DNA of 64,000 bases from Caldisericia bacterium. Lineage in GTDB: Bacteria; Caldisericota; Caldisericia; JAAYUI01. This document shows, in pieces, positions 27,252 through 51,269 of the stretch. The notes beneath the pieces are model-generated. The model saw only the letters and a program-made list of their open reading frames with translations. It ran no database searches and was not told the origin of the DNA. Made by a program: the position numbers and the translations under genes. Numbering within the stretch: position 1 is the stretch's first letter; each line of letters starts with the position of its first letter. The stretch is from positions 74,511-138,510 of the forward strand of contig OY771555.1 in NCBI GenBank assembly GCA_963674785.1, read 5' to 3'.

Positions 27252-27956
27252 ATGAAAAAAGGCAAAAGACTTAAAGGTTTGTACGAAAAGATAGAAGCAG
27301 ACAAGCTCTACGAAATCCCTGAGGCAGTAAAACTTCTCAAGGATCTCAAATCAAGCAAGTTTGACGAAACTGTCGAGATTGCAATGAAGCTCGGAGTTGA
27401 CCCAAAACAGGCCGACCAGAACATCAGAGGAACAGTCGGGCTTCCAGCAGGAACAGGTAAAACTGTCCGCATTCTTGCCTTTGCTAAAGGTGAAAAAGAA
27501 GCAGAAGCAAAAGACGCTGGCGCTGACATCATTGCTGACGACGAAACAGTAAAAAAGATCCAGGGTGGATGGTTCGATTTCGATCTCGTTATCGCAACTC
27601 CAGACATGATGGGTACCGTTGGTAGGATCGGTAAACTTCTCGGACCAAAAGGTCTTATGCCCAACCCAAAATCTGGAACAGTTACAATGGATATCGGAAA
27701 AGCTGTTAAAGAGTTTAAATCAGGTAGAATTGAATACAGAGTCAACAAATTCGCCGATATGAATGTTAGAATCGGAAAAGTTAGCTTCAACGAAGAAGAC
27801 CTTATCAGCAACATCACAACCTTCCTTCAGACAGTTCTTAGAGTCAGACCTGCTTCACTCAAAGGAACATACATCGAATCAATTACACTTTCACTCACAC
27901 AGAGTCCTGGTGTCAAACTCGATGTAATCAAAGCTCGTAATTTTGTTGCAGCATAA
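27252..27956 (+). CDS. rplA: 50S ribosomal protein L1
   Basis: 'FDETVEIAMKLGVDPKQADQNIRGTVGLPAGTGK' is the L1 signature. Confidence 0.97.
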   Translation: MKKGKRLKGLYEKIEADKLYEIPEAVKLLKDLKSSKFDETVEIAMKLGVDPKQADQNIRGTVGLPAGTGKTVRILAFAKGEKEAEAKDAGADIIADDETVKKIQGGWFDFDLVIATPDMMGTVGRIGKLLGPKGLMPNPKSGTVTMDIGKAVKEFKSGRIEYRVNKFADMNVRIGKVSFNEEDLISNITTFLQTVLRVRPASLKGTYIESITLSLTQSPGVKLDVIKARNFVAA

Positions 27957-29202: not shown

Positions 29203-29688
29203 ATGAAGACTCTGGTTGCCTACGCAACGAAATCTGGAACATCTGAAAAGTGCGCAAACCTTATCGCGAAGGAGTTTGACAATGTCGATATTGTAAACCT
29301 GTCAGAAACTGCACATCCGCAGTTCCTTGAATACGATCTGATCATTGCTGGTGGTCCAGTCCGAATGGCCAACCTTCACGCACATCTGATTAGGTTCTTG
29401 AAAGCAAACATCAGAAAGCTCGAAAAAAAGAATATCGCCCTTTTTATCTGTTGCATGGAACAGGGTGAAAAGGTTCAGGAACACATTGAAAAAGGATTCC
29501 CAAAACAGCTTCGTGAAGTAGCCCTTGCAATATCACATCTGGGCGCTGAGCTCAACTGGGACAAAATGGGCACGCTTGAACGTGCCATGATGAAAAAAAT
29601 TGTTTCATCCCAGAAGATTGATGAACCTTGTATCAATGAGGATGCAATAAAAGGATTTGTTGAGAAGATAAAGGCAAGCTTGGCCTAA
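29203..29688 (+). CDS. Flavodoxin-like protein (Flavodoxin_5/HemG-like fold)
   Basis: 'MKTLVAYATKSGTSEKCANLIAKEF...YDLIIAGGPVRMANLH' is a flavodoxin-type FMN-binding N-terminus. The protein is 161 aa. Confidence 0.6.
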   Translation: MKTLVAYATKSGTSEKCANLIAKEFDNVDIVNLSETAHPQFLEYDLIIAGGPVRMANLHAHLIRFLKANIRKLEKKNIALFICCMEQGEKVQEHIEKGFPKQLREVALAISHLGAELNWDKMGTLERAMMKKIVSSQKIDEPCINEDAIKGFVEKIKASLA

Positions 29689-31355
29689 TCCAAATCTATC
29701 TGATAGAGATCATAAACAAAATTCATATCATCAGCCTTCATATTTGAGGGGAGTGAGAAAAGTAGTTTGTTTCCATCAAGTTGCACACTTTCTTCTTTTA
29801 GGTTATATGCATCCCATCCTTTCATAACAGTCTCGGTCTTACCCTCTGAAACGTTAAAAAGATTGAGAGTTGATTTTTCACCCTTCTTTGAAGAAACATC
29901 TGGTCGATAAACAACGTATTTCTCATTACAAATATCAATATCAGATTTCGATTCCAGAATAAAAAGCTCGATTAAAGATTTTGAGATGTAATCAAACATA
30001 AAATATTTTTGACTACATAGATTCTTATTTGGAGGCGCATTGACTACATCTGCAAAATCGCAATCATTTCTTTCAAAAAACACAAACGCGGTCCTATTTT
30101 TTGAGTAATTGTTTATTGGATAAACAGAGCTAAAACTGTCAATAATAAAATCGAATGTTTGAAAAAAACTTATATCTTCGTTGGTCTTCTTGTATTCAAA
30201 ATACTCTAACTCAAAATCCATATAATCGACAAAAGATCCAACCTCATTATCGGGCTTAACCACAACGCCAATTTTGATTGCGTGTCGCTGTATACTCGCA
30301 TTTTTACACCTATCAATAATATTACGAGACCTGATCTTATCATATTTTTTAAATTCTGATACATCTTCTAGAACAATCTTCCTAGAATAAAACTCATCTA
30401 TTTTGAGTTTTTCTGTCGAATCAAAAAACATTGCCCTATTGATCACATTAACAAAAACACAGACCTCATTCAGCTTATGTTCATAATAAATATCCCATTC
30501 AATTTCATCGGGGCTTTCAGCAACAAGTCTTGGCTCTGGAATGACACCCTCTGCAAATTCTTTGTCCTCTAGATTGATGGCATAGACCTGAAAGCCTGAA
30601 CATTCTCCAGCATCATTCAATTTTTCCCTCTCATAAGCAATCCAGTTTTTGCATATCTTCAAATTACTTCTCATCAATGAATGCTTTGTGGCACGTGTTT
30701 CATCAAAACCAAGCTTTGAAAAATATATATCATTCATCAAGGTATAATCTTTTGTATGCCGTCTATCAAGCCAAGCAATATAATCATCATTCACTACGAC
30801 ATTATTCTCAAATTCATCGAAATCCATTACGGTTCGAACAGTTCCAATATGAGAAATAACGCCCGTTTCTTTATCCATCTTTTTTAGATATATCCGGTCG
30901 GAACGATTATCAAGGTCAATGTGAGATGCAAAAATAAGATATTTTTCATTTTGTTTAATTGATGTTGATGCAATATTTGAAAGCAAAAGCTTTGGTCTAT
31001 ATTTTGAGTTTTTTAAATGAACAAAAATCCATGAAATCAAGAGTACCGAAACTGTCAGGATAATGATTAAAGTAGAAAAAATCTTTACCGATTTTCTCTT
31101 CTTCGAAATTTTTTGAATGGCGACTTTTTCGGAATCTTCAAATCTATCCTTCCACACTTTCTGTTTTGCGAGTATCGAATCAGCAACCTTCAAAGCAGCA
31201 ACTTCTGCATACCCCTGAGTTTCGGAGATGTGCTTTGCGAGACTCTCTCTAACCTCTTCAAAGGGTTTAAGGATTTCGTTTTCGTCAATGCAATTCTCAC
31301 AATATTCTCCCAGCCTGTCGTGATTTCTACCACATGATTCACAAGTCTTACTCAT
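29685..31355 (-). CDS. Zinc-ribbon / single-TM / extracytoplasmic beta-propeller-like protein (paralogue A; anti-sigma-factor-like architecture)
   Basis: N-terminus 'MSKTCESCGRNHDRLGEYCENCIDENEILKPFEEVRESLAKHISETQGYAEVAALKVADSIL', then one TM ('IFSTLIIILTVSVLLISWIFV'), then a large domain with 'DDYIAWLD' and 'KNWIAYERE' repeats. Confidence 0.65.
   Translation of the reverse strand: MSKTCESCGRNHDRLGEYCENCIDENEILKPFEEVRESLAKHISETQGYAEVAALKVADSILAKQKVWKDRFEDSEKVAIQKISKKRKSVKIFSTLIIILTVSVLLISWIFVHLKNSKYRPKLLLSNIASTSIKQNEKYLIFASHIDLDNRSDRIYLKKMDKETGVISHIGTVRTVMDFDEFENNVVVNDDYIAWLDRRHTKDYTLMNDIYFSKLGFDETRATKHSLMRSNLKICKNWIAYEREKLNDAGECSGFQVYAINLEDKEFAEGVIPEPRLVAESPDEIEWDIYYEHKLNEVCVFVNVINRAMFFDSTEKLKIDEFYSRKIVLEDVSEFKKYDKIRSRNIIDRCKNASIQRHAIKIGVVVKPDNEVGSFVDYMDFELEYFEYKKTNEDISFFQTFDFIIDSFSSVYPINNYSKNRTAFVFFERNDCDFADVVNAPPNKNLCSQKYFMFDYISKSLIELFILESKSDIDICNEKYVVYRPDVSSKKGEKSTLNLFNVSEGKTETVMKGWDAYNLKEESVQLDGNKLLFSLPSNMKADDMNFVYDLYQIDLD
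31172..31355. repeat. Copy 1 of a roughly 185-bp near-identical direct repeat (5' ends of the tandem paralogues)
   Basis: 31172-31355 and 32781-32965 align with only scattered mismatches, e.g. 'agtatcgaatcagcaaccttcaaagc[a/c]gcaacttctgcatacccctgagtttc...'. Confidence 0.8.
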
Positions 31356-32965
31356 TGTCCACCAGCCTTCACGAGTTTATGAAGATCCCATTTGTATGCA
31401 TTTTTTTCATTTATTCTTTGTTCATAAATTTCCTCTTCATGTAGTCTTATATGGCCATTTGACTGAAGATCAAATGATGTGTATTTTTTCAACTCTTCAA
31501 GCTTTCTAGTTATAAAATCATATCGATATAGAGGAATATCTTCATCCCCACTTTCATAGTGTGGCACAAAAACAAATTGTGATGAGTTGAATGCAACACC
31601 TAAGGTTTTATTCATGTACTCATTTCTTCTAGGAGGGGCAATATCCTCAAAAAACATTTCGAGTTCACCCTCTTCAAAGTAGTAGCAATAAAAGCTACTA
31701 TTCTTCTTTGAAGTATTCTTTATTGTGATTTGTTCCCCGGGCTTATCTTTTAGATAGATAACTTGCTCACCTGGATCTTCAGTGAAAAAAACAACCTTTT
31801 CACCATCACCCCACTCATATCGAAGATTATCAAAAACTCCAATGGATTTTGAATCCTGTGTTTTTTTATCATACAAAAGCAGCTCAAATCTAGTTGGGGT
31901 TATCAATCGAACAAGATTGCTATCGGTAATATCTGAAAAATCGTTTATTTCTCTTTGATAGACAATAGTTTTATCAAACACATCAAGAATAGCCGTGTCA
32001 TCTGCAAATAATAATGGGTTTAGTTCAACAGTTTCACCATAAAATTGTCGCAAATCAAATCGATATGTGAAAGAATATATTCCTTCATCTGAAATTTCTT
32101 TTTGTTGGACAGCGAAAAGAAGAACCTTTCCATCGGGGCTCTTTTCAAGTTTCCATGTGTCGTTATCCTTGTAATAGTTAGGTTTGTCATAAACCACTTT
32201 CATTATCCTCATGCTTTCTGAATCAGGACGTGATAAATTGTGTGCATAAAATTCCATGTCCATATTATTTAATGCGACTCCATACACCAAACAGTTATCT
32301 AAAATCTTTATATCCCAATCATTTATAAACCTGTCTACCTGATCCGTGACAATTACAAAATTCCCATCAAAATCTGAGGCAAAAATTTTGTTTTCTACGG
32401 TCCAGGCAACGTAGTCATCAGTAATCCAAGATTGTCTCATGTTTCCCCAGGCCTGAAAATCCCATGGTTCACCGATTTGAGAAATTTCACCAGTTTTTTT
32501 ATTTTTTATATAAACACCGGAGAGATCTCCAACACTATCTTCATAGATATAAAAGTTTGAGTTCTGATGGATATATCCATATGCACTTTCAACAACCATC
32601 TTTTCAACATATGAAGATTTTTTAGTACCTGATGTAAACAATCCGGAAACAATTGCAACAACCAATAAGGCAACAATTGCACCAACAAAAAACGATGAGG
32701 CGAGAGGAAAGAACGGTTTTCTGTTTCCGGATTGTTTATCGGATTTTAAAAATCTAGCACTCCAAGCTGGCCTTGATTCAAGTATCGAATCAGCAACCTT
32801 CAAAGCCGCAACTTCTGCATACCCCTGAGTTTCAGAAATGTGTTTTGCAAGACTCTCTCTAACCTCTTCAAATGATTTGAGGTTTCCGTCCTTATCTACA
32901 CAATTCTCACAATATTCCCCCAACTTGTAGTGATTTCTACCACATGATTCGCAAGTCTTACTCAT
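31352..32965 (-). CDS. Zinc-ribbon / single-TM / extracytoplasmic beta-propeller-like protein (paralogue B)
   Basis: The N-terminal roughly 60 aa are nearly identical to paralogue A ('MSKTCESCGRNHYKLGEYCENCVDKDGNLKSFEEVRESLAKHISETQGYAEVAALKVADSIL'). One TM, then a divergent repeat domain ('DDYVAWTVENK'). It overlaps paralogue A by 4 nt and tetR by 8 nt. Confidence 0.65.
   Translation of the reverse strand: MSKTCESCGRNHYKLGEYCENCVDKDGNLKSFEEVRESLAKHISETQGYAEVAALKVADSILESRPAWSARFLKSDKQSGNRKPFFPLASSFFVGAIVALLVVAIVSGLFTSGTKKSSYVEKMVVESAYGYIHQNSNFYIYEDSVGDLSGVYIKNKKTGEISQIGEPWDFQAWGNMRQSWITDDYVAWTVENKIFASDFDGNFVIVTDQVDRFINDWDIKILDNCLVYGVALNNMDMEFYAHNLSRPDSESMRIMKVVYDKPNYYKDNDTWKLEKSPDGKVLLFAVQQKEISDEGIYSFTYRFDLRQFYGETVELNPLLFADDTAILDVFDKTIVYQREINDFSDITDSNLVRLITPTRFELLLYDKKTQDSKSIGVFDNLRYEWGDGEKVVFFTEDPGEQVIYLKDKPGEQITIKNTSKKNSSFYCYYFEEGELEMFFEDIAPPRRNEYMNKTLGVAFNSSQFVFVPHYESGDEDIPLYRYDFITRKLEELKKYTSFDLQSNGHIRLHEEEIYEQRINEKNAYKWDLHKLVKAGGQ
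32781..32965. repeat. Copy 2 of the roughly 185-bp direct repeat
   Basis: See copy 1. Confidence 0.8.
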
Positions 32966-33566
32966 TGTCCCCTCCTGTTATTTGACTAATGAAGAATTGT
33001 TTCAAAACATCCCCAAATCTTGTGATTACTTCTTGATTTGGAGAGTAGAGTTCTTTGTTTTCAAGATACCGATAAATCAGACCTATCCACATGTTTGACG
33101 CAATAATTGGGTCAGAGTTTGGAGAAACTGATTTTAGACAGTCAATGATCATTGATGAGATTTTCATCTCAAACTGAAGTGCCTGAAGTTTTGCTTTTTC
33201 AGGGAGAAGAGATTTTCTTACAATAAGGTTTACATAAAGCCCTTCATTATAACCGATCATTCTCAGATGTGATTCAATTGCAGTTTCCAATGGGATTGAG
33301 GAGTTATCAGATGGGAAAAAGTTTGAGGCTTTAAGGATATAGCTTTCTAAAACTGCAGATATTAACATCTCACGTGATCCAAAATGAGCAAAGATCGAAC
33401 CATGGGCAACTCCTGCAGCTTTTCCAGCCTGCTTGATGAAGCTTTCATTGACACCTTCAGCAGAAATTATTTCCGTTGCGGAGTCGATGATTTTTCTTCT
33501 GGTTTGTTCCTTTTTTTCAAGCCTTGATAGATTATCTGTCAAAGTATCTCCTTTTCGTTGACTCAC
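32958..33566 (-). CDS. TetR-family transcriptional regulator
   Basis: The N-terminal HTH 'RRKIIDSATEIISAEGVNESFIKQAGKAAGVAHGSIFAHFGSREMLISAVL' is typical of TetR_N. Confidence 0.8.
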   Translation of the reverse strand: MSQRKGDTLTDNLSRLEKKEQTRRKIIDSATEIISAEGVNESFIKQAGKAAGVAHGSIFAHFGSREMLISAVLESYILKASNFFPSDNSSIPLETAIESHLRMIGYNEGLYVNLIVRKSLLPEKAKLQALQFEMKISSMIIDCLKSVSPNSDPIIASNMWIGLIYRYLENKELYSPNQEVITRFGDVLKQFFISQITGGDNE

Positions 33567-33631
33567 TAGTCAATGACTACTTAGTCAATATAAAAAGATC
33601 GCCGAACTTTGTCAAGTTGTTTTGAGATTTA

Positions 33632-34102
33632 TTATGATAAGAATCTTTTTATCAAGCGCTTGGCAACTTCGTAAATTCCAGAAGTTGTTGACTCTCTTGG
33701 GCCAGCAATATTCAAAACTTTTATCTTGTTTTCCGAAATCCAGCTTAAGATCGATACAACTTTTTTCTGAGAGACTCTTTTGTTAATTGTGATTACCAAC
33801 AAGGGTTTTTTGGATTTTTCTGCGACATTCTTTGTCAGAAGCGTTCCACCAGTCGGCTCACTTCTTGTGATAATCAATGTACCATCAGAATCGTGGATAT
33901 TCATAATGGTTCTTTCGGGATATTTTCGGGTTTTGGTTTCTGACAAATTGTATTTATCAGGAATCCTTCCGTCTTCTGCAAGTCTTCCTTTTGGACACCA
34001 CCCACCATGAGGGATTCCCAATTCAATTGCGGCATCGAGAGCTGCTCTATCAACACCTGTTTGCCCACCAGATACAATTTTAAGATTCTTTTTCACGTGC
34101 AT
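33632..34102 (-). CDS. SLOG / 'molybdenum-carrier-like' Rossmann protein. The start is taken at 'MHVKKNLKIV'; the track ORF extends to 34201.
   Basis: 'IVSGGQTGVDRAALDAAIELGIPHGGWCPKGR' is the signature I associate with the PF12694-type LOG-like family. The assignment is from memory only. Confidence 0.45.
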   Translation of the reverse strand: MHVKKNLKIVSGGQTGVDRAALDAAIELGIPHGGWCPKGRLAEDGRIPDKYNLSETKTRKYPERTIMNIHDSDGTLIITRSEPTGGTLLTKNVAEKSKKPLLVITINKRVSQKKVVSILSWISENKIKVLNIAGPRESTTSGIYEVAKRLIKRFLS

Positions 34103-34178
34103 TGAAAATAAGATTTTAGCAAAGAACATGGGGAATGAAAGTACTGGAAATTTCCAAAAAATGGTGTAAAATTGAGGC

Positions 34179-35312
34179 ATGATAAACTTTACACAATACA
34201 ACCCGGTAAAAATTGTCTTCGGTCCAGGTGAAATAAAAAACCTTGGTATTCAGGCGAAAACTCTCGGTAATAAACCACTTGTTGTTTTTGGAATGAATTC
34301 AGCAAAAGAGACTGGACTTGATGAAAAATGTTTTCAGTTGTTGAAAGATTCAGGTCTAGAACCTGTACCATTCTATGGGATTGAACCAAACCCAAGAGAA
34401 TCGACATGTGATAAAGCTGCAGAGATTGCAAGAAACAAAAGTTGTGATTTTGTGATTGGGGTTGGTGGTGGTTCAGTTATGGACGCAAGCAAAACAATCG
34501 CTGCATCAGCATCCACAGGAAAACCTGTATGGTCACATGTAAAAAGGGAGGAACCTGTAACATCAGCTCTTCCAATCATGACAGTCTCAACACTTGCTGC
34601 AACAGGTTCAGAGTTCAACGCTGGAGCAGTTATAACCAATTGGGAAACAAATGAAAAGCTGGGGTTATTTTCACCACATATGTTCCCAAAAATCTCAATT
34701 CTTGACCCAGAACTTTCTATCACAACTCCACCAAACCATACTGCATATGGCGGAGTAGACATCATGATTCATGTACTCGAAACATACCTTACTTCAAGCG
34801 ATAACTACACACCTGTCCAGGATGGTATTAGCGAAGCCATCATGAAAACAGTCATCAAGTATCTACCAAAAGCATACAGCGCTGGAGATGATATTAATGC
34901 AAGGTCACAGCTTTCATGGACATCTGCAGTTGCTCTGTGTGGCATCCCAAACAACGGTCGCCCAGGTGGGTTTCTAATGCATTGGATGGAACACGTCTTA
35001 TCTGCCCATCACGACATCCCACACGGATTAGGTCTTTCATTCCTCTTGCCCCCAACACTTGAATATGTTTCTGAGGCATTCCCAAAAAGATACGAGATGT
35101 TTTTAAATAATGTGTGCAGCGACATAAAAGAGTTCCTAAAGTTGGTTAATTGTTATGTCACACTGGAGGATATAAATATTCCCGAATCAGACATACCAAA
35201 ATTTACAGATGATTTGTTTGCTCAAAAGGCTGTAGATGGAAAAATACCTGGAAATCCAAGCCTAACACGTGAAAAAGTTGCTAGAATATTCTCTGGGAAA
35301 TACAAGGAATAG
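34179..35312 (+). CDS. Iron-containing alcohol dehydrogenase
   Basis: 'CDFVIGVGGGSVMDASKTIA' is the Fe-ADH glycine-rich NAD motif. Conserved His are in the C-terminal half ('HVL...HHDIPHG'). Confidence 0.85.
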   Translation: MINFTQYNPVKIVFGPGEIKNLGIQAKTLGNKPLVVFGMNSAKETGLDEKCFQLLKDSGLEPVPFYGIEPNPRESTCDKAAEIARNKSCDFVIGVGGGSVMDASKTIAASASTGKPVWSHVKREEPVTSALPIMTVSTLAATGSEFNAGAVITNWETNEKLGLFSPHMFPKISILDPELSITTPPNHTAYGGVDIMIHVLETYLTSSDNYTPVQDGISEAIMKTVIKYLPKAYSAGDDINARSQLSWTSAVALCGIPNNGRPGGFLMHWMEHVLSAHHDIPHGLGLSFLLPPTLEYVSEAFPKRYEMFLNNVCSDIKEFLKLVNCYVTLEDINIPESDIPKFTDDLFAQKAVDGKIPGNPSLTREKVARIFSGKYKE

Positions 35313-35465
35313 GAAGCTTTTAACATTTATTTATCAGTTGATGGTTTTTTAGTTGGCTAGCTCTAACAAATTTGGTGAAAAAGGGTTAACTGTCAGTTAA
35401 TCCAATGTGTAATTAGTCTATTGACCAATTCAGGCAAAAGGCTAATCTAGTTGGTGGAGGTCAAT

Positions 35466-38400
35466 ATGAAAAAACTTGTTGCTGCCGTCATTTGTATATT
35501 ATTAGTCGCAGGGCTTGTCTTTATTTCCCCTGTTGTTTTTGCAGAAGAAATAAATGTAATTGATATTAATGCTACCATATCAGATGGAAGTGTGACTCTT
35601 AACTGGGAAAAGCAAACTGCATCCACAATCTATGTTTACAGGGATTACTACAAAAATGCTAAACCTGTGGCAACCCTCAACCCAACCGACACAAGCTTTA
35701 CAGAAAGCCCTACTCCTGGTAGCCACACATACTCAGTAATGATTATAGGTCGGGATGGTAGGGTTGCTTGTAGGTCTTCCGTTCTTCCGACATATATACC
35801 TCCAGAGTGTGAATATCCGGACAACACAATGATCAAACTTTGGATTGGCAAAAAAACAATGGGTGTTAACTGTGATACACAAGAAATCGATTCAGAACCA
35901 ATAATCATTCAATCAAACACTTTTGTTTCAATCAGACCAATCATTGAAGCTGTTGGTGGATCACTGGGTTGGGATGGAGCAACAAAATCTGTTATCGTAA
36001 ACCTTCCACCACATTCTGTTTCACTTTCAATTGGCAAAAACACCGCAACAGTTGATGGCAAAGAGGTGCAAATAAACAGCAATCCAGAAATCGTTCCCGT
36101 AATTGTAAATGGAAGAACAATGCTTCCATTCAGATTTATCGCTGAGAACCTCGAAGGAACAGTTGAATGGATCGGCTCTGAAAAGAGAATTGATATTCTT
36201 TTCCCGCTTCAGGAAAAAGTATCAGTAAGACGTGCAATGTCAGGAATGACATCTCTTGGAAGAAACTCACTTGGTCAGATAGTCAGTCTGAAAGATGTTG
36301 AAGAATTAGAAACAGACAATCCTATCGATGAGTTTCTAAAAGGGGCAAAGGTTTTAACTGGTACTGACTCAATTGAAGCAGTCCCGATTCTTGAATACAA
36401 GGACATAATTGGAAGACCAAACAGTTTGACAAAACTGTCTGACTGGCTTGGAATGTACAACCAAAACCTCAAAGCATACAAAATTTCATATAAATCAAAT
36501 CTGAGCAGTTTGAATGACTTTGATTCTGTTATTCTTCTAACCTCTGATGGTGAAATAGTTGATGCAACCTTTATCACTGCAGGTTTTGATTTCAATATTG
36601 AAAGTTCAGATACCGAAAAAATGAACTATCAAATACTGTTACCAAGAGCATCGGTAAAAAACAAAAAGTACACATGGAATATTGAATCAATCCCTATGAC
36701 TGCAAGCAGCAAAGTCACATCACTCAACTTAGATGAACCACCAGGATGTGACACATGTTCAAGGACAGTTGGCAATGCCAATCTATCTTTTGAAAACAAA
36801 GCAACAGAAAACCTCAGTCAAGCAAACAACATGTCGCTTGTTTTGCTTTCTTCTCTTGTTGATTTTTCCTTTGATATATCAGGAGGAGAAGGATTGACAT
36901 TATCACTTGATGAAGGTTGTGGATTCTTTCCGGGAACGTCATGCCCAAGCATTGATGGAGAGTTTGCTGAGTTTCAGCTTTCTATGGTTGACAATAGACC
37001 CCCAAACAACACATCAACAGTGAATAACTGCTCAGAAGCAGTAAAAGGCACATTCAACATAGCTGAATCAAACTCAAAATGGAACAGAGCAAGTGATGGA
37101 AAGTCTACAAATGAAGATTTCTTATCAATAAATATTGAGGATTCTTCAAGACCACGTTCAATTTCATTGGACATAAAAGAAAATGACCATATGTTCGGTT
37201 TCTTTAAGGTTTTTGCTCTGCCAAAAAGTATTTCTCTTTCACCCAATCCAATGCTGGATATCACTGTGCCAATCCTGAATTCGCCATCCGGAAAACAAGT
37301 TGGTAGATTCAGAGTCTCTGGAACATCTCAACTAAAAATTTCTTTCCCAAATGGAAAACCATCCTGCTGGTTTGGAGATGAAGACAAAGATGGTCAAACT
37401 AACCTCTCCATTAACACGATCGCAATTGATAAATCCACAGATTTTGACTGTCCTTGTGGTGAGACAAATGCCTTTGATTACGTTAATTATGAGATTATTC
37501 AAGAAGAGGGAGTAGGTTCAGTAATATTTGATGTCAGAGTGAACTCCGATATAGCATTTGTCCCAAAAAATGCAGAGGTTTCAATAGAGTTAATTAGGAA
37601 TGACGAGGTTGTCTCAACCCATGATGTATCCTACTCTGACCCATCACTTAATATAACTGATGACACAGCAGAGGCTGGAGAGTTTTATAAATACTGTTTA
37701 AAACTGATTTCAAATAGTGTTGAGATTGAAAACTATTGCATTGAAGAAGAACTTCAACCCAATCCATGGCTATTCTTCATGGAATGGAGCGATGTTCCAA
37801 ACGGAAGAGTTTTAGAAAAAAGCATCGAGAGAGGGTCAGAAGAAAGTTTTGATGTTATCATACACAACGTTTCAGAAAACGTTTTCAAAGCAGAACTCAG
37901 CATAAATAATCCAAATTACAAGTGGGATGTTTCATTTGTTGATAAAGAATCTCCGACATGGATTGAACTCAAACCCGGGCAAAAGGAAACAGTAACGCTA
38001 ACAATTTACCCAGACTCATCAATACCATCTGGGGAGAAAAACAACGTTGAAGTTGTTTTGAAAAGCGGACTCCAAACTATGGTTCTTACAGGCATTTTTT
38101 CTGTTTCTGCCCCAAGCTGCTCATATGAGATATCTTGGGTTTCTGGTGGAACAGGTATGGGAAATGATATTAGTCCAGGAACAGAGTTAATAGAAATCTT
38201 TACGATCAAAAACACAAGTAGCCAACAGCAACAATTTATTTTGGACTACAGCACCGAACAAGACAACACAAATACATTCTGGAATATAGGATTTAAAGAT
38301 CAGAGGAAGGGTGGGAAAATCTTCCTTGGGTCAGACGAAGAAACACAGGTGGCATTTGCAGTTTCATCGCCACAGGGAGCCAAAGATGGTGAGACTTTAA

Positions 38401-39545
38401 AAATAAAGATTGAAGTTCTAGGATGTGGAGAGTCAAAAGAGCTATCATGGTCAATAACAAACAAATTAATGGAGTGTTCATTTGAACTCGAGTGGGCTGA
38501 AAAGAAATCAACAACAAGAACAACCGTTGAAACAGACTCAAGATGGAACGAGACTTTTTATGTTTGGAACTTCAGTGATTATGAGGGAGTGTTTACTCTC
38601 GATGTCGAAGTAGAAGGAGAACCGATTGTTGCATATTTAGATAACTATGATCTAAAGATTAAAAGTGGCACATACGAAGAGGTCACGATCACATTCCAGA
38701 TTCACGCGAAAGCAAAAGTTGGTGATTCCTCTGTAAATATCGTTGCAACATGCGGTAAAACAACTCAAACCTTAGATCGAAGATTTTTAATTAAGAAAAA
38801 GAGTGACTGCCAATTTGAATGTTACTTCCTTGAATCTGAAACAAGTAACCTTGGTAAAGACATGGAAGTTGGCAAAGAAGTTCAGATACCTATTTATGTC
38901 AAAAATAATAGCGTTGATCCACAGCTTTTCTCGGTAAAGGTTGTAAGAAGTGAAACGGATTGGGCATCTGGTCTTGTTGAAGGAAAAGTCAGACAGACAT
39001 TCAATCTCGGATCGGGTGGTGACACAAGCAATCTTGTTGTATGGATAAGAGGTGAAGACGACACAAAACCCGGAGATACATGTAAGCTTTCGATTGTAAT
39101 AACTGCGTGCAACACCAAAAAAACAATCGTGTGTAACATCACATGTGTTGAAAAAACAGAACTTGATGTTGAACTTGAGCAAGAAATCACGTTCAGAAAC
39201 TGGAAAAAGAACGGTATGCTTGAGGTTGGGAATCGAATTGAGTTTAACAGAAAAGGAAGCGGTAACATCCTAACACAAAATTACAAGATCAAATTCTTTG
39301 ATGCCCAGCAAGATAATGCATACATCGGTGAACTTGATGAAGTCAGACTCGTAATGTCAATCTACAAAGGTAGACCACAATGGGATTTCAAATACTATGT
39401 CTCGACTGAAATAATAGAAAAACTGAAATCATTTGACAGCAAAAAGATTAAAGCAAAGATGACTATCTCAATGCTTTATACTCACGATGATGGGACTACA
39501 GATGTAGTAAAAAAAGAACTTGAAACCATATTTGAGCTTCCATAA
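35466..39545 (+). CDS. Large secreted cell-surface protein (about 1360 aa) with a copper-amine-oxidase-N-like domain near the N-terminus. The start is at 'MKKLVAAV'; the track ORF starts at 35451.
   Basis: Signal peptide. Residues about 120-270 read 'SIRPIIEAVGGSLGWDGATKSVIV...NGRTMLPFRFIAENLEGTVEWIGSEKRIDI', which is Cu_amine_oxidN1-like. The remainder is repetitive beta-rich sequence. Confidence 0.7.
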   Translation: MKKLVAAVICILLVAGLVFISPVVFAEEINVIDINATISDGSVTLNWEKQTASTIYVYRDYYKNAKPVATLNPTDTSFTESPTPGSHTYSVMIIGRDGRVACRSSVLPTYIPPECEYPDNTMIKLWIGKKTMGVNCDTQEIDSEPIIIQSNTFVSIRPIIEAVGGSLGWDGATKSVIVNLPPHSVSLSIGKNTATVDGKEVQINSNPEIVPVIVNGRTMLPFRFIAENLEGTVEWIGSEKRIDILFPLQEKVSVRRAMSGMTSLGRNSLGQIVSLKDVEELETDNPIDEFLKGAKVLTGTDSIEAVPILEYKDIIGRPNSLTKLSDWLGMYNQNLKAYKISYKSNLSSLNDFDSVILLTSDGEIVDATFITAGFDFNIESSDTEKMNYQILLPRASVKNKKYTWNIESIPMTASSKVTSLNLDEPPGCDTCSRTVGNANLSFENKATENLSQANNMSLVLLSSLVDFSFDISGGEGLTLSLDEGCGFFPGTSCPSIDGEFAEFQLSMVDNRPPNNTSTVNNCSEAVKGTFNIAESNSKWNRASDGKSTNEDFLSINIEDSSRPRSISLDIKENDHMFGFFKVFALPKSISLSPNPMLDITVPILNSPSGKQVGRFRVSGTSQLKISFPNGKPSCWFGDEDKDGQTNLSINTIAIDKSTDFDCPCGETNAFDYVNYEIIQEEGVGSVIFDVRVNSDIAFVPKNAEVSIELIRNDEVVSTHDVSYSDPSLNITDDTAEAGEFYKYCLKLISNSVEIENYCIEEELQPNPWLFFMEWSDVPNGRVLEKSIERGSEESFDVIIHNVSENVFKAELSINNPNYKWDVSFVDKESPTWIELKPGQKETVTLTIYPDSSIPSGEKNNVEVVLKSGLQTMVLTGIFSVSAPSCSYEISWVSGGTGMGNDISPGTELIEIFTIKNTSSQQQQFILDYSTEQDNTNTFWNIGFKDQRKGGKIFLGSDEETQVAFAVSSPQGAKDGETLKIKIEVLGCGESKELSWSITNKLMECSFELEWAEKKSTTRTTVETDSRWNETFYVWNFSDYEGVFTLDVEVEGEPIVAYLDNYDLKIKSGTYEEVTITFQIHAKAKVGDSSVNIVATCGKTTQTLDRRFLIKKKSDCQFECYFLESETSNLGKDMEVGKEVQIPIYVKNNSVDPQLFSVKVVRSETDWASGLVEGKVRQTFNLGSGGDTSNLVVWIRGEDDTKPGDTCKLSIVITACNTKKTIVCNITCVEKTELDVELEQEITFRNWKKNGMLEVGNRIEFNRKGSGNILTQNYKIKFFDAQQDNAYIGELDEVRLVMSIYKGRPQWDFKYYVSTEIIEKLKSFDSKKIKAKMTISMLYTHDDGTTDVVKKELETIFELP

Positions 39546-41331: not shown

Positions 41332-44300
41332 TTAGTAGTATCTGGTCATTGTTATGAGTCGTTCTTCACCATTCCAGGCGACCTCAGCTCCAAGTGATTC
41401 AGCGATGAATCTAAATGGAACCATCGTTCTTCCGTTTACTATTTCTGGAGGCTGGTCAATTGTCACAAACTCACCATTAAGTACTGCAGTTTGCTGGCCG
41501 ATAACCATCGACAGATTGATGTCTTCAAGTTGAACTGTGACCCTTCTTGCGGTTTGATCCCACCCTACCTCAGCTCCGAACGCTTGAGAGATAGCCCTCA
41601 CTGGCACAAGTGTTCTGTTTGCAGAAGATATGTATGGAGCAGTATCAAGCATAACAATCTCACCATCAACAAGCATGATCTGATTATCAATTTTCAGTTC
41701 GATAGTCTTTATCCTGTATCCCCACACTTCAATATCTGATTTTGATTCATTACCAATTTTATCAGTTGCAACATAATCAAATTTATTGCTTCCGATATTA
41801 ATTGGAATGACAACTTCATTGGTTCCCTCAAGCAGTTCTAAGGTCTCACCAGCAATCACGAATGTTACATCTTCACTTACTGTTACGGTGATTGTTGCTT
41901 CTGTTTTATCAACAGTATCACGCTTGAGTGGAGGAATAATTTTCACATATGGAGGAGTTGTGTCTCTTGTGATAACAACGGTCATTTCTGTTTTTGTACC
42001 AACAGGGTTGAATGATGCCACAACAAATTCATTCTTGCCTTCGACAAGGTCAACATTTACAAAGAAGCTCCCATCAGCACCTACACTTACAGGCTTTCCA
42101 TCAACTGAAAGTGACGCATCGGGTGTTGTTTTACCCTTTAATGTCATATCGGTTTCCCTTGTGAGTTCCTCATACTCCTCAAATTCAATAAATGGAGCCT
42201 GTGACGAGGAAACAACATCTATGACTTCGGGATTCACAGTTTTGTATTCACCAAGAAGTCTGATTACAATTTGTCCTGGTTTGCTTGGTAAAACATCAAA
42301 CTCAGCTTGTCCTTCAGAATTTGTCTCAGCCTCCATACTTACACCTGCACCTTTAACAGATACAGCAACACCAACAAGAGGTTTTCCGTATGAACCGGCA
42401 TACTCGACATTTACAGTCACTTTCTTTAGAAGTCCAGGATAGAACACACCGGAATGCTCAACACTTATTACAGCACCTTTGACGGTGTCAAATGTGAGGA
42501 CATCACCGGACTCAATGAGGTCGTCACTGAAACTGCTCTTTGCTTTATATTTCAGAGTTACATTTGATTCACCAATTGAATTTGGCTCAAAGTGAATTGT
42601 AGCCATTGTTGAAAGCTCATCATCTGGGTCACGTTTTGTTTCTTCAGTTACTTTCTTGTTTCCTGTAATCGACGATACCTCAACAACTGAACCCTCTTTT
42701 ATTGGGTCAGTTTCAAGTGGAGAACTCGGAGTGACAGTCACCTGAAGAACATTGTCAGCCTTATTGACAAGGTCATAATTAGAGGTACTAAGGAACTCAG
42801 AACCCCACTCCTGACCAGTCTTATCTTCGAAGATTTTAATTACTGGTTTCTGGATTGGGACATATGTTGTTGTTGGGGAATCCCAATCGAGAGCAAACTG
42901 TCCATCAGGTGAGTATCTGAGTTCTGGGTTGAATGAAACTGCCTGTGATCGAGGTGTTTCACCTGCTACATCACCATTGATGACGGATGCCTTATTTGCT
43001 CCAACAAATCCACCAAGTCCAAATTCTGAATCAGCAAAGATATAGAAGGTAACCGAACCATTTTTATCGATATTCAATGAATCCTTATAATCGACCATGC
43101 CGTCACCATTGAAGTCAGAGACATAATAGTTACCAGCGAGCTCTGAATTATAGATACATCCAGCTCCCCACTTCTCAAGATCCATTGATGTACCATCCAT
43201 CTCTGTTCCTGTTTTGTAGTAGGTACTCATTGCAGCAACATCTTTCATGTCAGCACTTACATTATCTGTAACCGAGACTGCAAGGTGGTTGAACACTTCG
43301 ACATCATCATCAGTTGCAGTTTTGACAAGGAATGGTGTAAATCTTGTGAAGTCAGTTGCAGAACCAATTTTGCCTGGAAGATTTGAAACGCCCTTAATAA
43401 GATTTCCTTCGGCATCTCTGATTGTTGCTTTGATCTTATATACCCTTGAATCAAATGCAGTCATAACGGCATCTGGATCTTCTGGATATTTCATTGTTTC
43501 GTGGTGTTCCTGGGCAAGGTTTATGATTTCATAACTGACTGTTGGTCTGCCGACCTTTATTGATGCAACACCCCATCCACTATAGTCAGGTGTTACGATC
43601 TTGAGATTTATTTCACCCTCATCGTTTGCAACGAATCCTTCGAATTTATAGATTCCCTTGCTTGCCTGTGAGAAGTCATATTTGATTGGTGAGAATCCGA
43701 AAAGTGATTCATTATCAGAAAGAGTGCTGTTCTCATTTGTGATAGATGTTGTTGTCCAATAATACTCGTTTGTTCTGTCCGGTCGTTTCTGTGTGATGTA
43801 ATTTGCAGCCTCTTCGTCAGTTAGTTTTCCATTCTTTGTAAGGTCAACTGGGCTTCCACTATCATCCGTGATTGTAAGGGTCAATGGTGTTTCAGGATCG
43901 ACAATTTCAGGGGAGACACCCGATGTAAGGATTGGAGGACTTACGTTAACTGTAATATTTGGGTCAGATGGAATTCCTCCACCTGCCATTGGTCTCATTG
44001 TTATTTCACCTGCAAGATAAACCTCATGTGAATAATACTTGCTGTTACCTGGAACCTGCCATAGTGGTGTGAAGCTTCGGTCATTATTATCATCACCATA
44101 CTTGTATGCACAAAGATGGATTGGAAGTTCCTCTTTTTCAGAGATCAGGTGGTCTCCATTGAAGTCCCAACCATAGTCTTCAATTCGACATCCATTATCC
44201 AGACTCATATCAAAGATATATCTACCGTTATTCCTCTGATAAGTTCTCGCATCAATTATTCCACCAACCCACGTGTTTGTAGCAATATTATATGATCCGA

Positions 44301-47300
44301 TAAGCTCTGTTTCATAAGCATCAAATGATATTCTTCCATCACCATTGAGGTCATCATATTTTGAGTAAGCACCACTTACCCCAGAACCAACCGAAGATGT
44401 TGGGCCACCTGTAATCCAACCATCACCGGCACCCTCAAGAAGAGTTGAGCCATCTTGATATCTGACTCCTCTATCCTGCCAAGCAAAAACAAGAGCATCG
44501 TTACATTCTCTATTCTGCTGAATATCTTCCCATTCTGTAATTTTTACATCAACAATATTATCTGAACCGAGTCCTATTGTTGGAGATGCACCTTCAATAT
44601 GAAGTCCATGAACAGGAATTCCAACGATTCGGTATTCCTGACAGCAGTCTTCCCAATATTTCTTTGTTCCATTTGCAAGCTCAACCATAATTGAGAGGAC
44701 ACCCTTATCTACAGGGATAATTTCATCGAACACAAAAACTGAGGAACTTAACATGGAGTAATCAAGATCTCCATGCTGAACAAGTCTCTGATTTGCAGTA
44801 CTATATGTATATCTATCCTGGAATCCTGGATTGATTATTCTCGTATAATCGGCAGAACCGAGTTCATAGTCACTCCAGTTTGTAGTGTCAACTGTAATTC
44901 TTCCAGAATAATCATATCTTATCGGAGCACCTCTAAGACCATTGTATTCATTATCTTCATAATCCATTGGAAGCTCAGGGATTTTAAATGGGCCGCTGAT
45001 CTCTATTCTTCTGATCTTGTGGTCGCTATCTGTTGCCGTAAATGAAAGAGGTTGCCCAAGTCCATCCATAAGCATAAAGAAGATTCCGTAATCTGTAAGT
45101 GGCGTAAACTCTGTTCCCATCTTATAATACATGTCACCCCAGATTGCAGGATAAGCACTTCTTCCATCGCCCATAGTGCTTCCCTGAATTCGAAGTGGAT
45201 GGGTCTGACCACCAGGATAACTCCTAAACTCTCTGACAAGGTTCGATAAAATTGGGTCATATGGTGTTTGAATCTGAGGAGTTGGCACATCAAATCTTGA
45301 AAGTGCACCAGTTCCAGCAGTGTAATTGACATTTGAATACTGAAGAGCATGGTCTACAACTCTGAATTCAACAAAGTTCACATCAGGGTCTGTGATGTTC
45401 CCACCGCCACCAGATGATCCACCACCGCTTGAACCACCACCAGATGATCCACCGCCTGTACTTGTTGAGTCTTTGCCGATTATGAATATTCCGCAGTAAT
45501 CTGTTCCTTCGGCATTGGATGGAACAAAATATGGAGGATGAGTGATTGTGCTGTTATAATCCCAGAGAGCATTTTCAGTATGCACTCTAACATTCAAGTT
45601 AGACGATGTGTTTCTTGGGTAAACCGCGATTGGAAGCATTCCGCCGCTTTCAGCCCAAGGTGATGTTTTGTATGTTGATACAAAGGTCGGTACCCCATAT
45701 GTTTCGATCAATGGATATGTAGCACCATCAAATGGCCCCCAACTGTCACCCTTTGTGACGACACCTAACTCATATCTGAAACCTGATCCGCAAATATCAC
45801 ATTCAGCAAACCTACCAGAACAATCAAGATCCTCAAATGAGTCTGTTGCACGTTCTCCTTCAAGCGGTCCAGTTACAGTATCTTCAGGGTCAACAGCACC
45901 AATTGCTCCCAGCCCAGTTGTTGGGCTTTGGTTATCAGCCCATTCCCACACAAGGAAGGTTCTATCGTCATTAACCTGAACAATATATCTGTTTGGACCA
46001 CTTCCTGCAGTAAACATCCAGTCAACTCCAGCACCATTAGCATTATATGTCGCAATGATATTGCCGGCATTTGGTGTTGTTGAAATAGGAACTCCGTTCA
46101 AGTCGTTAACATCATATGGATTATCCCAATCCTTCAATGTGAGAGACATGTTTGGGTATCTGATACTGATATTCTGCAAACAAGAAATATTGCATTCAAA
46201 ATCGATTGGTTCTGGTTTTACTTCAAACTCTTTTACGTAATAACAGTCATAGTTATTTGGAATGGTTGTATTACCAAGAATGCTTGGTGATGGAATCTCC
46301 CAGTAACCATAGGCTCCATCGGTAGGGCCACCCCATCCAAGATCGGCAGGGTTTCCAGTTCCCTTTTCATAATATACTTCAATAATATATGGATGGATGA
46401 TTCCAAACTCATCACATGAACCCTCGTATGGGGTTATTTGAACCTGAAGCTCTGATTTCTTATTTGACAGAGTTCCTGCGACATTTCTATGTCCTGATGC
46501 ATCAGTTAAAACAACAAATGCAAGTTTATTTTCCTCTGGGGCGGGATTCATTGTGATTTTTACGGAAGATGTCTGCTCAACCTGGAATTCTTTATCAACA
46601 GTAATACTTATTGGTGCTTCACCCGGGAGAACCTCAAGATCAAGAGCTCTTGGGTTCCCATTTTTTCCCATTGTAAAACCAGTTACAACGAAATTTTCAA
46701 TGTATGTTTCGGGTCCGGCAACAACACTACCACAAAAATATGTCTTTCCTGATCTTGAGACATTTGAAAGCCTTGTGTCACCAACGCTTACAGTATTTGA
46801 AAGGTCTGCATCATAATACATCCACTCAGTCTCATCAAATTGAACATCATAGTCGACATCAAAATATCCTGTGTTGCTAAATGGTGAAAGAATAAAGCCA
46901 ACATCAGCATCACCAGTTGTTACAATAGAGCCTGCTGGGAATGTAACGATTACACCGCCAACCTGAACTGTGATTGTCGTCATCCTAACATCACCATTGT
47001 TGACAATATGATTGCCAAATGGATCTTGACCTGTATTTACATTTGTGTAGATACCTTCACCACAACCATAACCAACTCCACCCTCATCATGATAATAGAA
47101 ATCTGATGGGAAAGGAGTGAGCGACAAACCAGTATCAGTATCAGTTGTTCCACTTGCCGATGCTCCGATAAATGCCTCACAAGCCTCCTCTGCTTTATAG
47201 TCATCGGTGAGGTTTTGGGCAAAACAACTTCCTGATGGGTTGTTGATATTATTTACACCATCATCTCTGAATATCTCAACACCGAGCCATCCTCTATACT

Positions 47301-48144: not shown

Positions 48145-48211
48145 CGTATTTCTCCTTATCCATATTTCAGGATTGTTTTGAAACAAATACGATGTTTTTA
48201 CGCTTAAAGTT

Positions 48212-48279: not shown

Positions 48280-49611
48280 CTAGTTGAGAGTTGTATCAGG
48301 ATAAGCTGCTAATTTAACGGTTTTTGTAATTTTCTTTCCATTTCTAACAATTTCCAAATCGACCTCATCACCTACTCTGTATTTTCTTGTTGCAACGAGA
48401 AGCTCTTCCATCGATTTAACCTCATAGTCGCCAATCTTCGTAATGACATCTTTCGTCTGAATATCTGCATCACGGGCTGGACCATAGGCAACTTCAGCGA
48501 CAATGACACCTGGTAAGTAATCTAATTCAATATCATCGGCTATGCTCTGTGTAAATGTTCCACCAGCAATACCGATATATGGCCAGGAGATCCTTCCATA
48601 TTTTATCAGGTCTTCTGCAACACGTTTAACGATATCTGATGAAATTGCAAATCCAAGATTATCGCCTTCGCGTTTGAATGTGTTGATTCCAACAACCTTT
48701 CCATCAAGAGTCACAAGAGGACCACCAGAGTTTCCAGGGTTGATTGCCGCATCAGTTTGAACAACACCCCAAAGTGTTTTTGATTTTACCTGTTGCGAAG
48801 TTCCTCCAAAACCAAAACCGAACATATCTCCACCATAACTTGGAGTTTCTTCAACATACTCCATATCAACAATTCGTTCATTGGCTGAAATTACACCTGT
48901 AGTTACTGTGTGGTCAAACTCATATGGATTTCCGATTGCAACAACTGGCTCACCAACCTTAAGTTTAGATGAATCACCCAACTCAGCATATGGAAGTTCA
49001 GCTGCATCAATCTTTAAAACAGCAAGGTCTGACATCTCGTCTGTTCCAACCAAGGTTGCCTGGAACTCTCTGTTGTCCTTTAGAGTAACCATAATCCTTG
49101 CTTGTTTACCTTCAACAACATGATTATTTGTTACGATATATGTTCCATCCTCTGTCCAAGGATTATCAATGATCACACCTGATCCAGCAGCCACCCTAGT
49201 TGAATACTGTGGCTGAGATCTTCTTCCAAAAAATCCACCATACGGATCACTTTGAGCAACTAAAGTTTCAACAGAGATTGAGACAACAGCAGGGCCAACT
49301 TTGTTTGCAACATCAATTACACCACTGTAATAGACATCGCCACTAGTCATCTCAACACTTGGTTCTGGATTATTTATAACAAGCGTTTCTTTACTGTTGA
49401 CTCCGGCCTGATAACCAACAAACGCTGCTCCTGCACCAAAGGTCAATGAGAAAACAAGTGCAATTGCAATAACACCGATCCATGTGGGTCTGCTTGGTTC
49501 TTTCTTTTTCAAATAAATCCCAACATCTTCTACAACTTCCTCCTTCATTCTCCCTGATGTTTCATCAACATCATTTTCAAAAACTTCTTCCACTTCTTCG
49601 TCATAACTCAT
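48280..49611 (-). CDS. htrA: HtrA/DegP-family periplasmic serine protease (trypsin-like plus PDZ) with an N-terminal TM
   Basis: The catalytic triad context is present: 'TNNHVVEG', 'DLAVLKID', 'GNSGGPLV'. A C-terminal PDZ-like region follows. Confidence 0.85.
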   Translation of the reverse strand: MSYDEEVEEVFENDVDETSGRMKEEVVEDVGIYLKKKEPSRPTWIGVIAIALVFSLTFGAGAAFVGYQAGVNSKETLVINNPEPSVEMTSGDVYYSGVIDVANKVGPAVVSISVETLVAQSDPYGGFFGRRSQPQYSTRVAAGSGVIIDNPWTEDGTYIVTNNHVVEGKQARIMVTLKDNREFQATLVGTDEMSDLAVLKIDAAELPYAELGDSSKLKVGEPVVAIGNPYEFDHTVTTGVISANERIVDMEYVEETPSYGGDMFGFGFGGTSQQVKSKTLWGVVQTDAAINPGNSGGPLVTLDGKVVGINTFKREGDNLGFAISSDIVKRVAEDLIKYGRISWPYIGIAGGTFTQSIADDIELDYLPGVIVAEVAYGPARDADIQTKDVITKIGDYEVKSMEELLVATRKYRVGDEVDLEIVRNGKKITKTVKLAAYPDTTLN

Positions 49612-49622
49612 AATTCTTCCTC

Positions 49623-50750: not shown

Positions 50751-50753
50751 GAT

Positions 50754-51176
50754 TTATTTTTCCTTTGAATTCCTTTTCTGTTTTCTATCTGCGATCATCT
50801 TTTCCAAAATCTCGAGTTTTTCAATATCCCTCTTTTCGAGAATATCTAAAAAACCTTCAATAACAGGCTCAGTCATCGAGTCTGCAATCTTTCCTAAAAC
50901 CTTATGCATTGCCTGGTTATCGAGTTCCTCTTTTGTGTTTGCAGGTGCATAAACATAACATCTTCCTGATTTTTCTCGAGTAAAGACACCTTTTTTGGAT
51001 AATCTGTCGCATATAGTCATTATAGTTGTATACGCATAATCCTCAGGAATATTCTTTAAAATTTCCCTAACAGTTGCCTTCCCAAGCTCTAAACACGACT
51101 TAAAAACTTTTTTCTCAAGAGATCCGAGAGTAAGTCCGATCCCTTTCCCACTTGTTAATTTTACATTTTCTATTTC
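50754..51176 (-). CDS. BlaI/MecI/CopY-family transcriptional repressor. The start is at 'MEIENVKL'; the track ORF extends to 51215.
   Basis: 'LGSLEKKVFKSCLELGKATVREILKNIPEDYAYTTIMTICDRLSKKGVFTREKSGRCYVYAP' is the winged-helix penicillinase-repressor pattern. Confidence 0.7.
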   Translation of the reverse strand, partial: EIENVKLTSGKGIGLTLGSLEKKVFKSCLELGKATVREILKNIPEDYAYTTIMTICDRLSKKGVFTREKSGRCYVYAPANTKEELDNQAMHKVLGKIADSMTEPVIEGFLDILEKRDIEKLEILEKMIADRKQKRNSKEK

Positions 51177-51269
51177 CATAGTTCGTAGTATTGCACGTAG
51201 TAATACTATTGTCAATAGTATTTGTTTAACAATTTATACGATACCCAATAAATCCTTATAAATAAAACG

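Follow-up and report, generated by a model that had tools for sequence, protein, structure and literature searches.

A TetR-led operon for duplicated, membrane-anchored Zn_ribbon_2-like proteins with conserved heads and rapidly diverging ectodomains in a Caldisericia bacterium

The DNA analyzed here, a stretch of 64,000 nucleotides from a Caldisericia bacterium (contig OY771555.1, positions 74,511 to 138,510 of the forward strand; hereafter the window), contains on its minus strand an operon of three genes in the order tetR-B-C (Table 1). tetR overlaps gene B by 8 nt (ATGAGTAA) and gene B overlaps gene C by 4 nt (ATGA); the coordinates of the open reading frames (ORFs) thus bear out the coupling of the three genes claimed in an original prediction that had been made from the sequence alone. 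The first gene encodes, as had also been proposed, a TetR regulator, since its product matches TetR_N (PF00440) with 31.9-32.1 bits against a cutoff of 24. Its start is probably TTG 33542 rather than GTG 33566 because an AAGGAG lies 5 nt upstream of the former, while the latter is not preceded by a ribosome-binding site; a public protein collection holds the 194-aa form with the TTG start. The products of B and C share a zinc-ribbon and helical head, one transmembrane (TM) helix and a large C-terminal ectodomain.

Table 1. Features of the tetR-B-C operon and of its upstream region (window coordinates).
Feature	Position	Strand	Description
sigma-70-type promoter	33587..33615	-	TTGACA (33615-33610), 17-nt spacer, TATATT (33592-33587)
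two tandem palindromic candidate operators	33558..33588	-	TTGACTAAGTAGTCA and TTGACTAGTGAGTCAA; 15-16 nt each
Shine-Dalgarno sequence AAGGAG	33548..33553	-	5 nt before the TTG start of tetR; read from the sequence
tetR	32958..33542	-	194 aa; mechanical ORF reaches GTG 33566 (32958..33566)
gene B	31352..32965	-	537 aa; head aa 1-68 = 32762-32965; TM aa 90-112 = 32630-32698; beta-propeller-like ectodomain aa ~117-537
gene C	29685..31355	-	556 aa; head aa 1-68 = 31152-31355; TM aa 96-114 = 31014-31070; ectodomain aa ~120-556
homogenised tract, copy 1	32780..32970	-	5 nt upstream (GGACA) and first 186 nt of gene B
homogenised tract, copy 2	31170..31360	-	5 nt upstream and first 186 nt of gene C

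The zinc ribbon of B and C has the arrangement C5xxC8-x10-C19xxC22, which corrects the CxxC-x12-CxxC spacing given at first, and residues 32-62 (FEEVRESLAKHISETQGYAEVAALKVADSIL) are identical in the two proteins. Neither B nor C matched any Pfam or NCBIfam family, PF12674 included (no match at E<=1), and word-indexed homology searches returned only the query itself, its paralogue and one fragment. Relatives of B were gathered by an exhaustive phmmer search, whose 57 matches comprised: (i) three full-length relatives with 30-34% identity, the closest of them being P0005 with 30%; (ii) about 30 representative clusters of proteins of 470-910 aa that have the head, a single TM helix around aa ~75-116 and an extensive C-terminal part, and (iii) many free-standing proteins of about 84 aa, with E values of 1e-4 to 1e-6. 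The free-standing relatives match Pfam PF12674 (Zn_ribbon_2) at E 1e-9 to 1e-14. This family, described as a putative zinc ribbon domain, consists mostly of bacterial proteins of about 80 aa and is a domain of unknown function. In a joint alignment of the heads with the free-standing Zn_ribbon_2 proteins, C5, C8, G9, C19, C22 and W68 are invariant, and both kinds of protein have the two CxxC pairs followed by a TQG...helix...helix...PAW module. The B and C heads differ from the family in having a shorter loop, of 10 residues, between the two Cys pairs, in staying below the Pfam threshold, in being fused to a TM helix and a beta-propeller-like domain of about 420 aa, and in being tandemly duplicated. 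A sister protein at a related locus with three tandem copies (L005, see below) has a weak precomputed match to PF12674, and the model of the head is confident (pLDDT 86). On the basis of these alignments the head of B and C is a divergent, loop-shortened Zn_ribbon_2 domain. A third member of the family, P0008 (583 aa, head 44% identical to that of B), is encoded elsewhere on the 2.23-Mb contig that contains the window.

The original prediction had likened this architecture to that of a zinc-binding anti-sigma factor or a one-component transmembrane sensor. To an anti-sigma factor of the ZAS or RsgI type, with its sigma factor encoded elsewhere, the likeness is superficial: a Cys-rich N-terminal domain in the cytoplasm, a single TM helix and an outer domain. 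B and C gave no match to zf-HC2 (PF13490) or RsgI_N at E<=1, the HxxxCxxC motif is absent from their sequence, and no sigma factor gene was found among the approximately 30 window ORFs scanned, in agreement with the earlier remark that no ECF sigma factor is nearby. Moreover, a TetR gene occupies the upstream position in 8 of 8 loci. The identity as an anti-sigma factor was rejected on these grounds, and we regard it as very improbable. A BlaR1/MecR1 sensor identity was likewise rejected because B and C have no Pfam match to the M56 metalloprotease domain, and so was membership of a defence system of the PADLOC type, since TetR, B and C match no PADLOC protein model of anti-phage systems.

One TM helix is predicted in each paralogue, at aa 92-110 in B and 96-114 in C, as had been expected, and the AF2 model of B places a helix at 90-112. 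The full model of B (pLDDT 69) has an all-beta ectodomain, which Foldseek matches best to propellers, namely those of prolyl oligopeptidase, DPP-IV and sortilin (E ~1e-8, probability 1.0, TM-score 0.35-0.42). No match to the propeller families of Pfam that are defined by sequence repeats (PD40/TolB, DUF5050, PQQ-like) was obtained for B or C. Hence, of the architecture first read from the letters, the order zinc ribbon, helix, single TM helix and outer domain of about 400 aa stands, with a propeller-like fold suggested by AF2 and Foldseek, whereas the repeats are matched by no propeller Pfam family; with moderate confidence the ectodomain can be called beta-propeller-like, at the level of the fold only. 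Taking into account that there is no signal peptide, that a basic cluster precedes the TM helix and that a Cys4 ribbon is expected in the cytoplasm, B and C would be oriented with the N-terminus in and the C-terminus out, placing the head in the cytoplasm and the propeller outside. A perfect 17-nt inverted repeat brackets the TM-coding segment of gene B, just beyond the end of the homogenised head tract, with its arms 70 nt apart at 32635-32651 (TAAACAATCCGGAAACA) and 32722-32738 (TGTTTCCGGATTGTTTA). The RNA fold at this repeat has a z-score of -3.9, 0 of 200 shuffles being as good, and the repeat is absent from gene C.

The position of tetR is conserved. A check of the genomic context, as the original prediction had advised, placed a TetR gene immediately 5' of the membrane-form genes (head, TM helix, ectodomain) in 8 of 8 loci, which represent at least five genomic contexts and arrays of one to three copies. 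The locus of a related Caldisericia metagenome-assembled genome, L001, is syntenic with the window (~86% nucleotide identity across tetR) and has the cpYpsA gene and tetR followed by a single C-like gene, the ortholog of C. More distant syntenic loci have two copies (L002) and one copy (L003), and in unrelated contexts tetR is directly 5' of one copy in L004 and L006, of three tandem copies in L005 (3687-9869, all behind one TetR) and of a 910-aa member in L007. A narrower alignment of the heads, used as query, found one genome locus. In L001 (9074-10780 and 6728-7860) the C-like gene contains many stops and frameshifts, which may be due to assembly error or to pseudogenisation; the two are indistinguishable because the neighbouring Fe-alcohol dehydrogenase (Fe-ADH) and FGGY kinase genes are also broken.

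The TetRs of the loci with membrane-form genes constitute one subfamily with those found beside free-standing Zn_ribbon_2 genes in Lacrimispora (L012) and at locus L008. The window TetR is similar over its full length (27-89%) to TetRs adjoining Zn_ribbon_2 genes, with which it shares the motifs HG.IF.HF and W.GL..YYL.N..F.P; it has no match to a TetR C-terminal domain family, and its relatives have sub-threshold matches to TetR_C_24 only. Residues of this C-terminal domain are invariant across phyla and strongly conserved in very distant taxa. An unrelated TetR encoded nearby does not match the subfamily. Judged by sequence, the window tetR is therefore an ordinary TetR in its DNA-binding domain and a member of a distinct subfamily linked to Zn_ribbon_2 genes.

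The strength of this link was estimated on metagenome contigs scanned with the TetR subfamily signature only. From the 80 loci kept, which span 28-71% GC, 72 have a downstream Zn_ribbon_2 ORF on the same strand (E 1e-17 to 1e-31), usually within 0-40 nt of tetR, and five of the eight negative loci have less than 450 nt of sequence after tetR. The TetR that the original prediction had seen in the usual place of a sigma factor is thus a conserved and specific neighbour. A TM helix follows none of the 72 metagenome ORFs, of which 71 clearly stand alone. The metagenome units share no conserved third gene, Zn_ribbon_2 being the last gene in 20 of the 35 evaluable loci, and the accessory genes found occasionally encode TfoX_C, CMD, glyoxalase/Ble-like and NUDIX proteins. 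Clean two-gene units of TetR and Zn_ribbon_2 are present on plasmids of Clostridium estertheticum. Viewed from the Zn_ribbon_2 side, the association is less strict, since free genes of this family also lie behind a MarR gene (L009) or a WYL regulator gene (L010/L011), or have no regulator beside them, as in records of Klebsiella and E. coli. In the MarR case (L009 3584-4213) the gap is 3 nt, the WYL-type case lies at L010 2880-4234, and in P0057 a Zn_ribbon_2 is fused to a glyoxalase domain. We strongly infer that the window operon derives from the widespread TetR and Zn_ribbon_2 pair, of which it would be a lineage-specific (Caldisericia-type), membrane-anchored and duplicated version.

Mapping of the region 5' of tetR, also suggested by the original prediction, yielded a predicted promoter and two tandem palindromes. 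The promoter agrees with the consensus at 11 of 12 positions, is the best-scoring site of the upstream region, and has the same layout 5' of tetR in L001-L006. The candidate operators begin within or beside the -10 box and span the predicted transcription start. Beyond these two palindromes, TTGACTN4AGTCA has no perfect match in the 64-kb window. The motif TTGA(C/G)T-N4-A(G/C)TCA, with TTGACT or TTGAGT as half-site, is kept at the same position in L001-L008, with one to three palindromes per related locus; it is thus also present 5' of tetR in L008, a free-standing Zn_ribbon_2 module. TetR would bind the palindromes, and the operon would be tightly autorepressed by it. An operator-like sequence lies inside the conserved rplA coding sequence, at 27730-27745 of the window (one mismatch) and at 12674-12689 of L001 (perfect match to the degenerate motif), where the conserved codons probably produce it by chance.

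The first 186 nt of B and C are identical at 163 of 186 positions (87.6%), somewhat less by exact alignment than the 90-95% over ~185 bp of the earlier estimate, and identity drops sharply after nt ~186. It amounts to 91.7% over nt 1-60; codons 32-62 agree at about 92% of positions, with 7 differences, each of them synonymous. Past ~aa 195 the two proteins have no significant similarity, so the strong divergence noted before for the remainder holds. That a collapsed or mis-joined duplication in the assembly makes the 5' ends alike is of negligible probability and was rejected: 23 of 186 positions distinguish the two copies, most of these changes being synonymous, both ORFs are intact, and equivalent arrays with constant heads and variable bodies occur in independent assemblies (L002 and L005). 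The amino acid identity of heads and ectodomains is 81% and 27% in the window, 85% and 35% in L002, and 91-96% and 34-42% in L005. The synonymous divergence (dS) follows the same trend. In the window it is 0.58 for the heads (0.41 in codons 31-62; dN/dS, the ratio of nonsynonymous to synonymous divergence, 0.03-0.1) and about 1.0 or more downstream; for copies 1 and 2 of L002 it is 0.65 and 2.3, respectively, and for copies 1 and 3 of L005 it is 0.09 in the heads (96% nucleotide identity) and saturated downstream. In L005 the identity breaks abruptly at nt ~270, and at its other end it takes in the ribosome-binding site. These two copies are the clearest case of gene conversion in the family.

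Since the heads have a lower dS than the bodies in three arrays and the identity in L005 ends at a sharp break, the sequence comparisons support gene conversion confined to the head, acting together with strong purifying selection (dN/dS ~0.03-0.1). The original prediction had offered recent conversion or purifying selection as alternatives; both are supported, except that the last conversion in the window is not recent, the dS of the B and C heads being comparable to that which separates the window from L001 (TetR dS 0.41). Orthology of the ectodomains by position, with B corresponding to the first and C to the second gene of L002, could not be established, as each L002 paralogue resembles the other more than it resembles B or C; the case for conversion in the window therefore rests on contrasts in dS and not on incongruence of trees.

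By the same comparisons the ectodomains turn over very fast. Between L002 and L003 the flanking proteins are 93-100% identical, the TetRs 89% and the heads 90-93%, against ectodomains of only ~32%, and between the window and L001 the ectodomains are 33-53% identical while the flanking genes are 87-98% identical. The alignment of L001 to the window runs through tetR into the head of B and then jumps to the head and body of C, the body of B being missing. Such a pattern is as expected for, and suggests, loss of the B body by recombination between the two heads. In L002 (11142-11972) and L003 (9520-10335) an extra gene of ~275 aa, encoded on the opposite strand, separates the array from the flavodoxin gene; this gene is absent from the window; it is only 66% identical between these genomes, which are otherwise 93-100% identical, and the variable region therefore extends beyond the ectodomains.

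This turnover might be that of a hypervariable surface-protein locus, perhaps one engaged in an arms race. Exposed at the surface, B and C would then serve for binding or as decoys, for example towards phage or in cell-cell contact, with the head as no more than a constant membrane anchor and recombination handle and TetR as no more than an expression switch. Ectodomains that are 32% identical where the flanking genes are 93-100% identical would fit such a locus, as would the copy number of one to three among relatives, the head-mediated loss of the B body in L001 and the richness of the surrounding genomes in Cu_amine_oxidN1 surface proteins. However, the head is under strong purifying selection (dN/dS 0.03-0.1), it is homologous to free-standing soluble proteins, by which it would be more than an anchor, and no PADLOC match was obtained. 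We consider this explanation improbable.

Taken together, the data lead us to propose a TetR-gated operon whose Zn_ribbon_2 membrane proteins are the regulated effectors, a reading to which we assign a probability of about 0.5. In the model, TetR dimers would occupy the two tandem palindromes, which overlap both the -10 box and the start of transcription of a strong promoter, and so keep tetR, B and C off. A signal at the conserved C-terminal domain of TetR would release it, and coupled translation of the three genes would follow. B and C would then insert with the N-terminus in and the C-terminus out, the zinc-ribbon and helical head remaining in the cytoplasm, where it would act on a conserved partner as a constant functional module like that of the free-standing 80-aa proteins, and the propellers would serve outside as interchangeable, fast-evolving extracellular binding modules. 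Purifying selection and gene conversion, with a conversion tract that takes in the ribosome-binding site, would hold the heads alike, and the conserved head would in turn be the stretch of homology through which ectodomain cassettes are gained, lost and replaced.

The main alternative, in line with the TetR and membrane-sensor signalling module that the original prediction had thought possible, is that the same arrangement is a transmembrane switch between partners. In that case the head would bind its cognate TetR as an anti-repressor or co-regulator, and the propeller would sense the outside and alter this binding, much as in an ECF sigma/anti-sigma pair in which TetR replaces sigma, the soluble form resembles RsrA and the membrane form RsiW or RsgI. 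A TetR subfamily almost always followed by Zn_ribbon_2, closely spaced or overlapping, speaks for such a switch, and so do the occurrence of Zn_ribbon_2 as a protein by itself as well as at the cytoplasmic N-terminus of single-pass proteins, the lack of any conserved cargo except Zn_ribbon_2, and a TetR C-terminal domain with invariant residues across phyla. Heads are near-identical within an array, and between modules of one assembly heads (40-49%) and TetRs (29%) diverge in parallel; the constant head with a variable ectodomain is receptor-like. Protein control of such regulators has precedents, the TetR-family and MarR regulators MexZ, MexR, AmtR and DhaS being governed by the protein partners ArmZ, ArmR, GlnK and DhaQ, respectively, of which ArmZ and ArmR are anti-repressors that reviews also mention; the folds of the partners are unrelated, and none of them is known to be membrane-anchored or a zinc ribbon. 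On the other hand, isolated two-gene units would have no output unless TetR had remote targets, and neither the 64-kb window nor the related loci showed a further operator. It is also hard to reconcile with the presence of Zn_ribbon_2 behind MarR, behind WYL or without a regulator that one domain should bind unrelated repressor folds, and sensors of a stable cue would be expected to have ectodomains with a much slower turnover than is observed. We hold a switch of this kind to be possible, though somewhat doubtful. The stronger form of the proposal, that Zn_ribbon_2 is a dedicated 'anti-TetR' partner of the TetR subfamily, fused in Caldisericia-type bacteria to a TM helix and interchangeable propellers, so that fast-evolving receptors would control TetR directly by a new transmembrane signalling route, seems to us rather unlikely.

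A function of B and C as effectors is slightly favoured over a transmembrane anti-TetR switch because it (i) explains the isolated two-gene units without remote TetR targets; (ii) accounts for Zn_ribbon_2 genes behind other regulator families or none, which indicates an autonomous function, and (iii) fits the accessory genes of detoxification type. The many units of TetR and Zn_ribbon_2 without other cargo likewise point to Zn_ribbon_2 as a regulated effector with a function of its own. Several observations weigh on the opposite side. An 80-aa protein would be unusual as the sole cargo of a dedicated repressor, the conservation of the TetR C-terminal domain fits a common protein partner as well as a common ligand, and a constant cytoplasmic head with a hypervariable ectodomain follows the logic of receptor families, which favours signalling; in addition, the binding to the operators, the topology and the inducibility are all inferred.

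A repressor with a co-transcribed, possibly regulatory, membrane partner is a known kind of arrangement. The ECF sigma/ZAS pairs, with soluble RsrA or membrane-bound RsiW and RslA, and the SigI-RsgI sets of Clostridium thermocellum resemble the operon in that the gene of a regulator precedes a co-transcribed and often overlapping gene for a Cys- or zinc-containing cytoplasmic domain, which occurs free or as the N-terminus of single-pass proteins and forms paralogous sets with constant heads and varied ectodomains. The window operon differs from them in having a TetR repressor and not a sigma factor as regulator, and in lacking HxxxCxxC and homology to zf-HC2 or RsgI_N. BlaI/BlaR1 (MecI/MecR1) also unite a repressor and a membrane sensor-protease with an extracellular sensor domain in one autoregulated operon, although B and C lack the M56 metalloprotease and penicillin-binding domains and the repressor belongs to another family. 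With the classical TetR-cargo units, TetR-TetA and QacR-QacA, the operon would share a local autoregulating repressor and palindromic operators over the promoter of the adjoining cargo, the difference being that the cargo here is a Zn_ribbon_2 protein and no transporter or enzyme, and that tetR is co-directional and translationally coupled with it. Literature searches on PF12674, on TetR with a zinc ribbon or anti-repressor and on TetR in Caldisericota found nothing relevant, and no description of a TetR and Zn_ribbon_2 module or of membrane-anchored Zn_ribbon_2 proteins.

PF12674 gains a testable context from the association, in bacteria of 28 to 71% GC, with a specific TetR subfamily that is almost always followed by Zn_ribbon_2. 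The window locus is the most elaborate form of the module, being membrane-anchored and duplicated, with heads that evolve in concert and ectodomains swapped between close relatives. Were the head to act on TetR, it would constitute a new transmembrane signalling route to a one-component repressor and the repressor counterpart of ECF sigma/anti-sigma signalling. If it does not, B and C would still represent a new class of TetR-controlled effector, and the locus a clear natural case of domain-limited gene conversion and cassette turnover.

The operon is flanked upstream by a cpYpsA gene of the SLOG family and an Fe-alcohol dehydrogenase gene, and downstream by a convergent flavodoxin gene and rplL. 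The cpYpsA gene (33632-34201, minus strand), directly 5' of the operon and syntenic in L001-L003, has weak PADLOC matches to ShosA (E 7e-7) and PsyrA (E 5e-4). Farther away in the window, a BlaI/Penicillinase_R repressor (50754-51215), a BlaR1-like M56/M48 peptidase (49623-50750) and an HtrA protease (48280-49611), all on the minus strand, form a unit (48280-51215) with the classical arrangement of a repressor and a membrane sensor. Three very large Cu_amine_oxidN1 proteins of 1364, 2284 and 759 aa are encoded at 35451-39545 (plus strand), 41332-48186 (minus strand) and 51346-53625 (minus strand), respectively, and one of them also has a PQQ-like propeller. Proteins with this domain are abundant around L005-L007, and their crowding there suggests that Cu_amine_oxidN1 is a cell-surface anchoring domain typical of the lineage. 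Finally, a 170-aa ORF at 3774-4286 (plus strand), which belongs to no Pfam family, encodes a second and unrelated zinc-ribbon membrane protein, in which a CxxC-x9-CxxC ribbon at the N-terminus precedes two hydrophobic helices; it has a weak tblastn match to one head of the B/C family.

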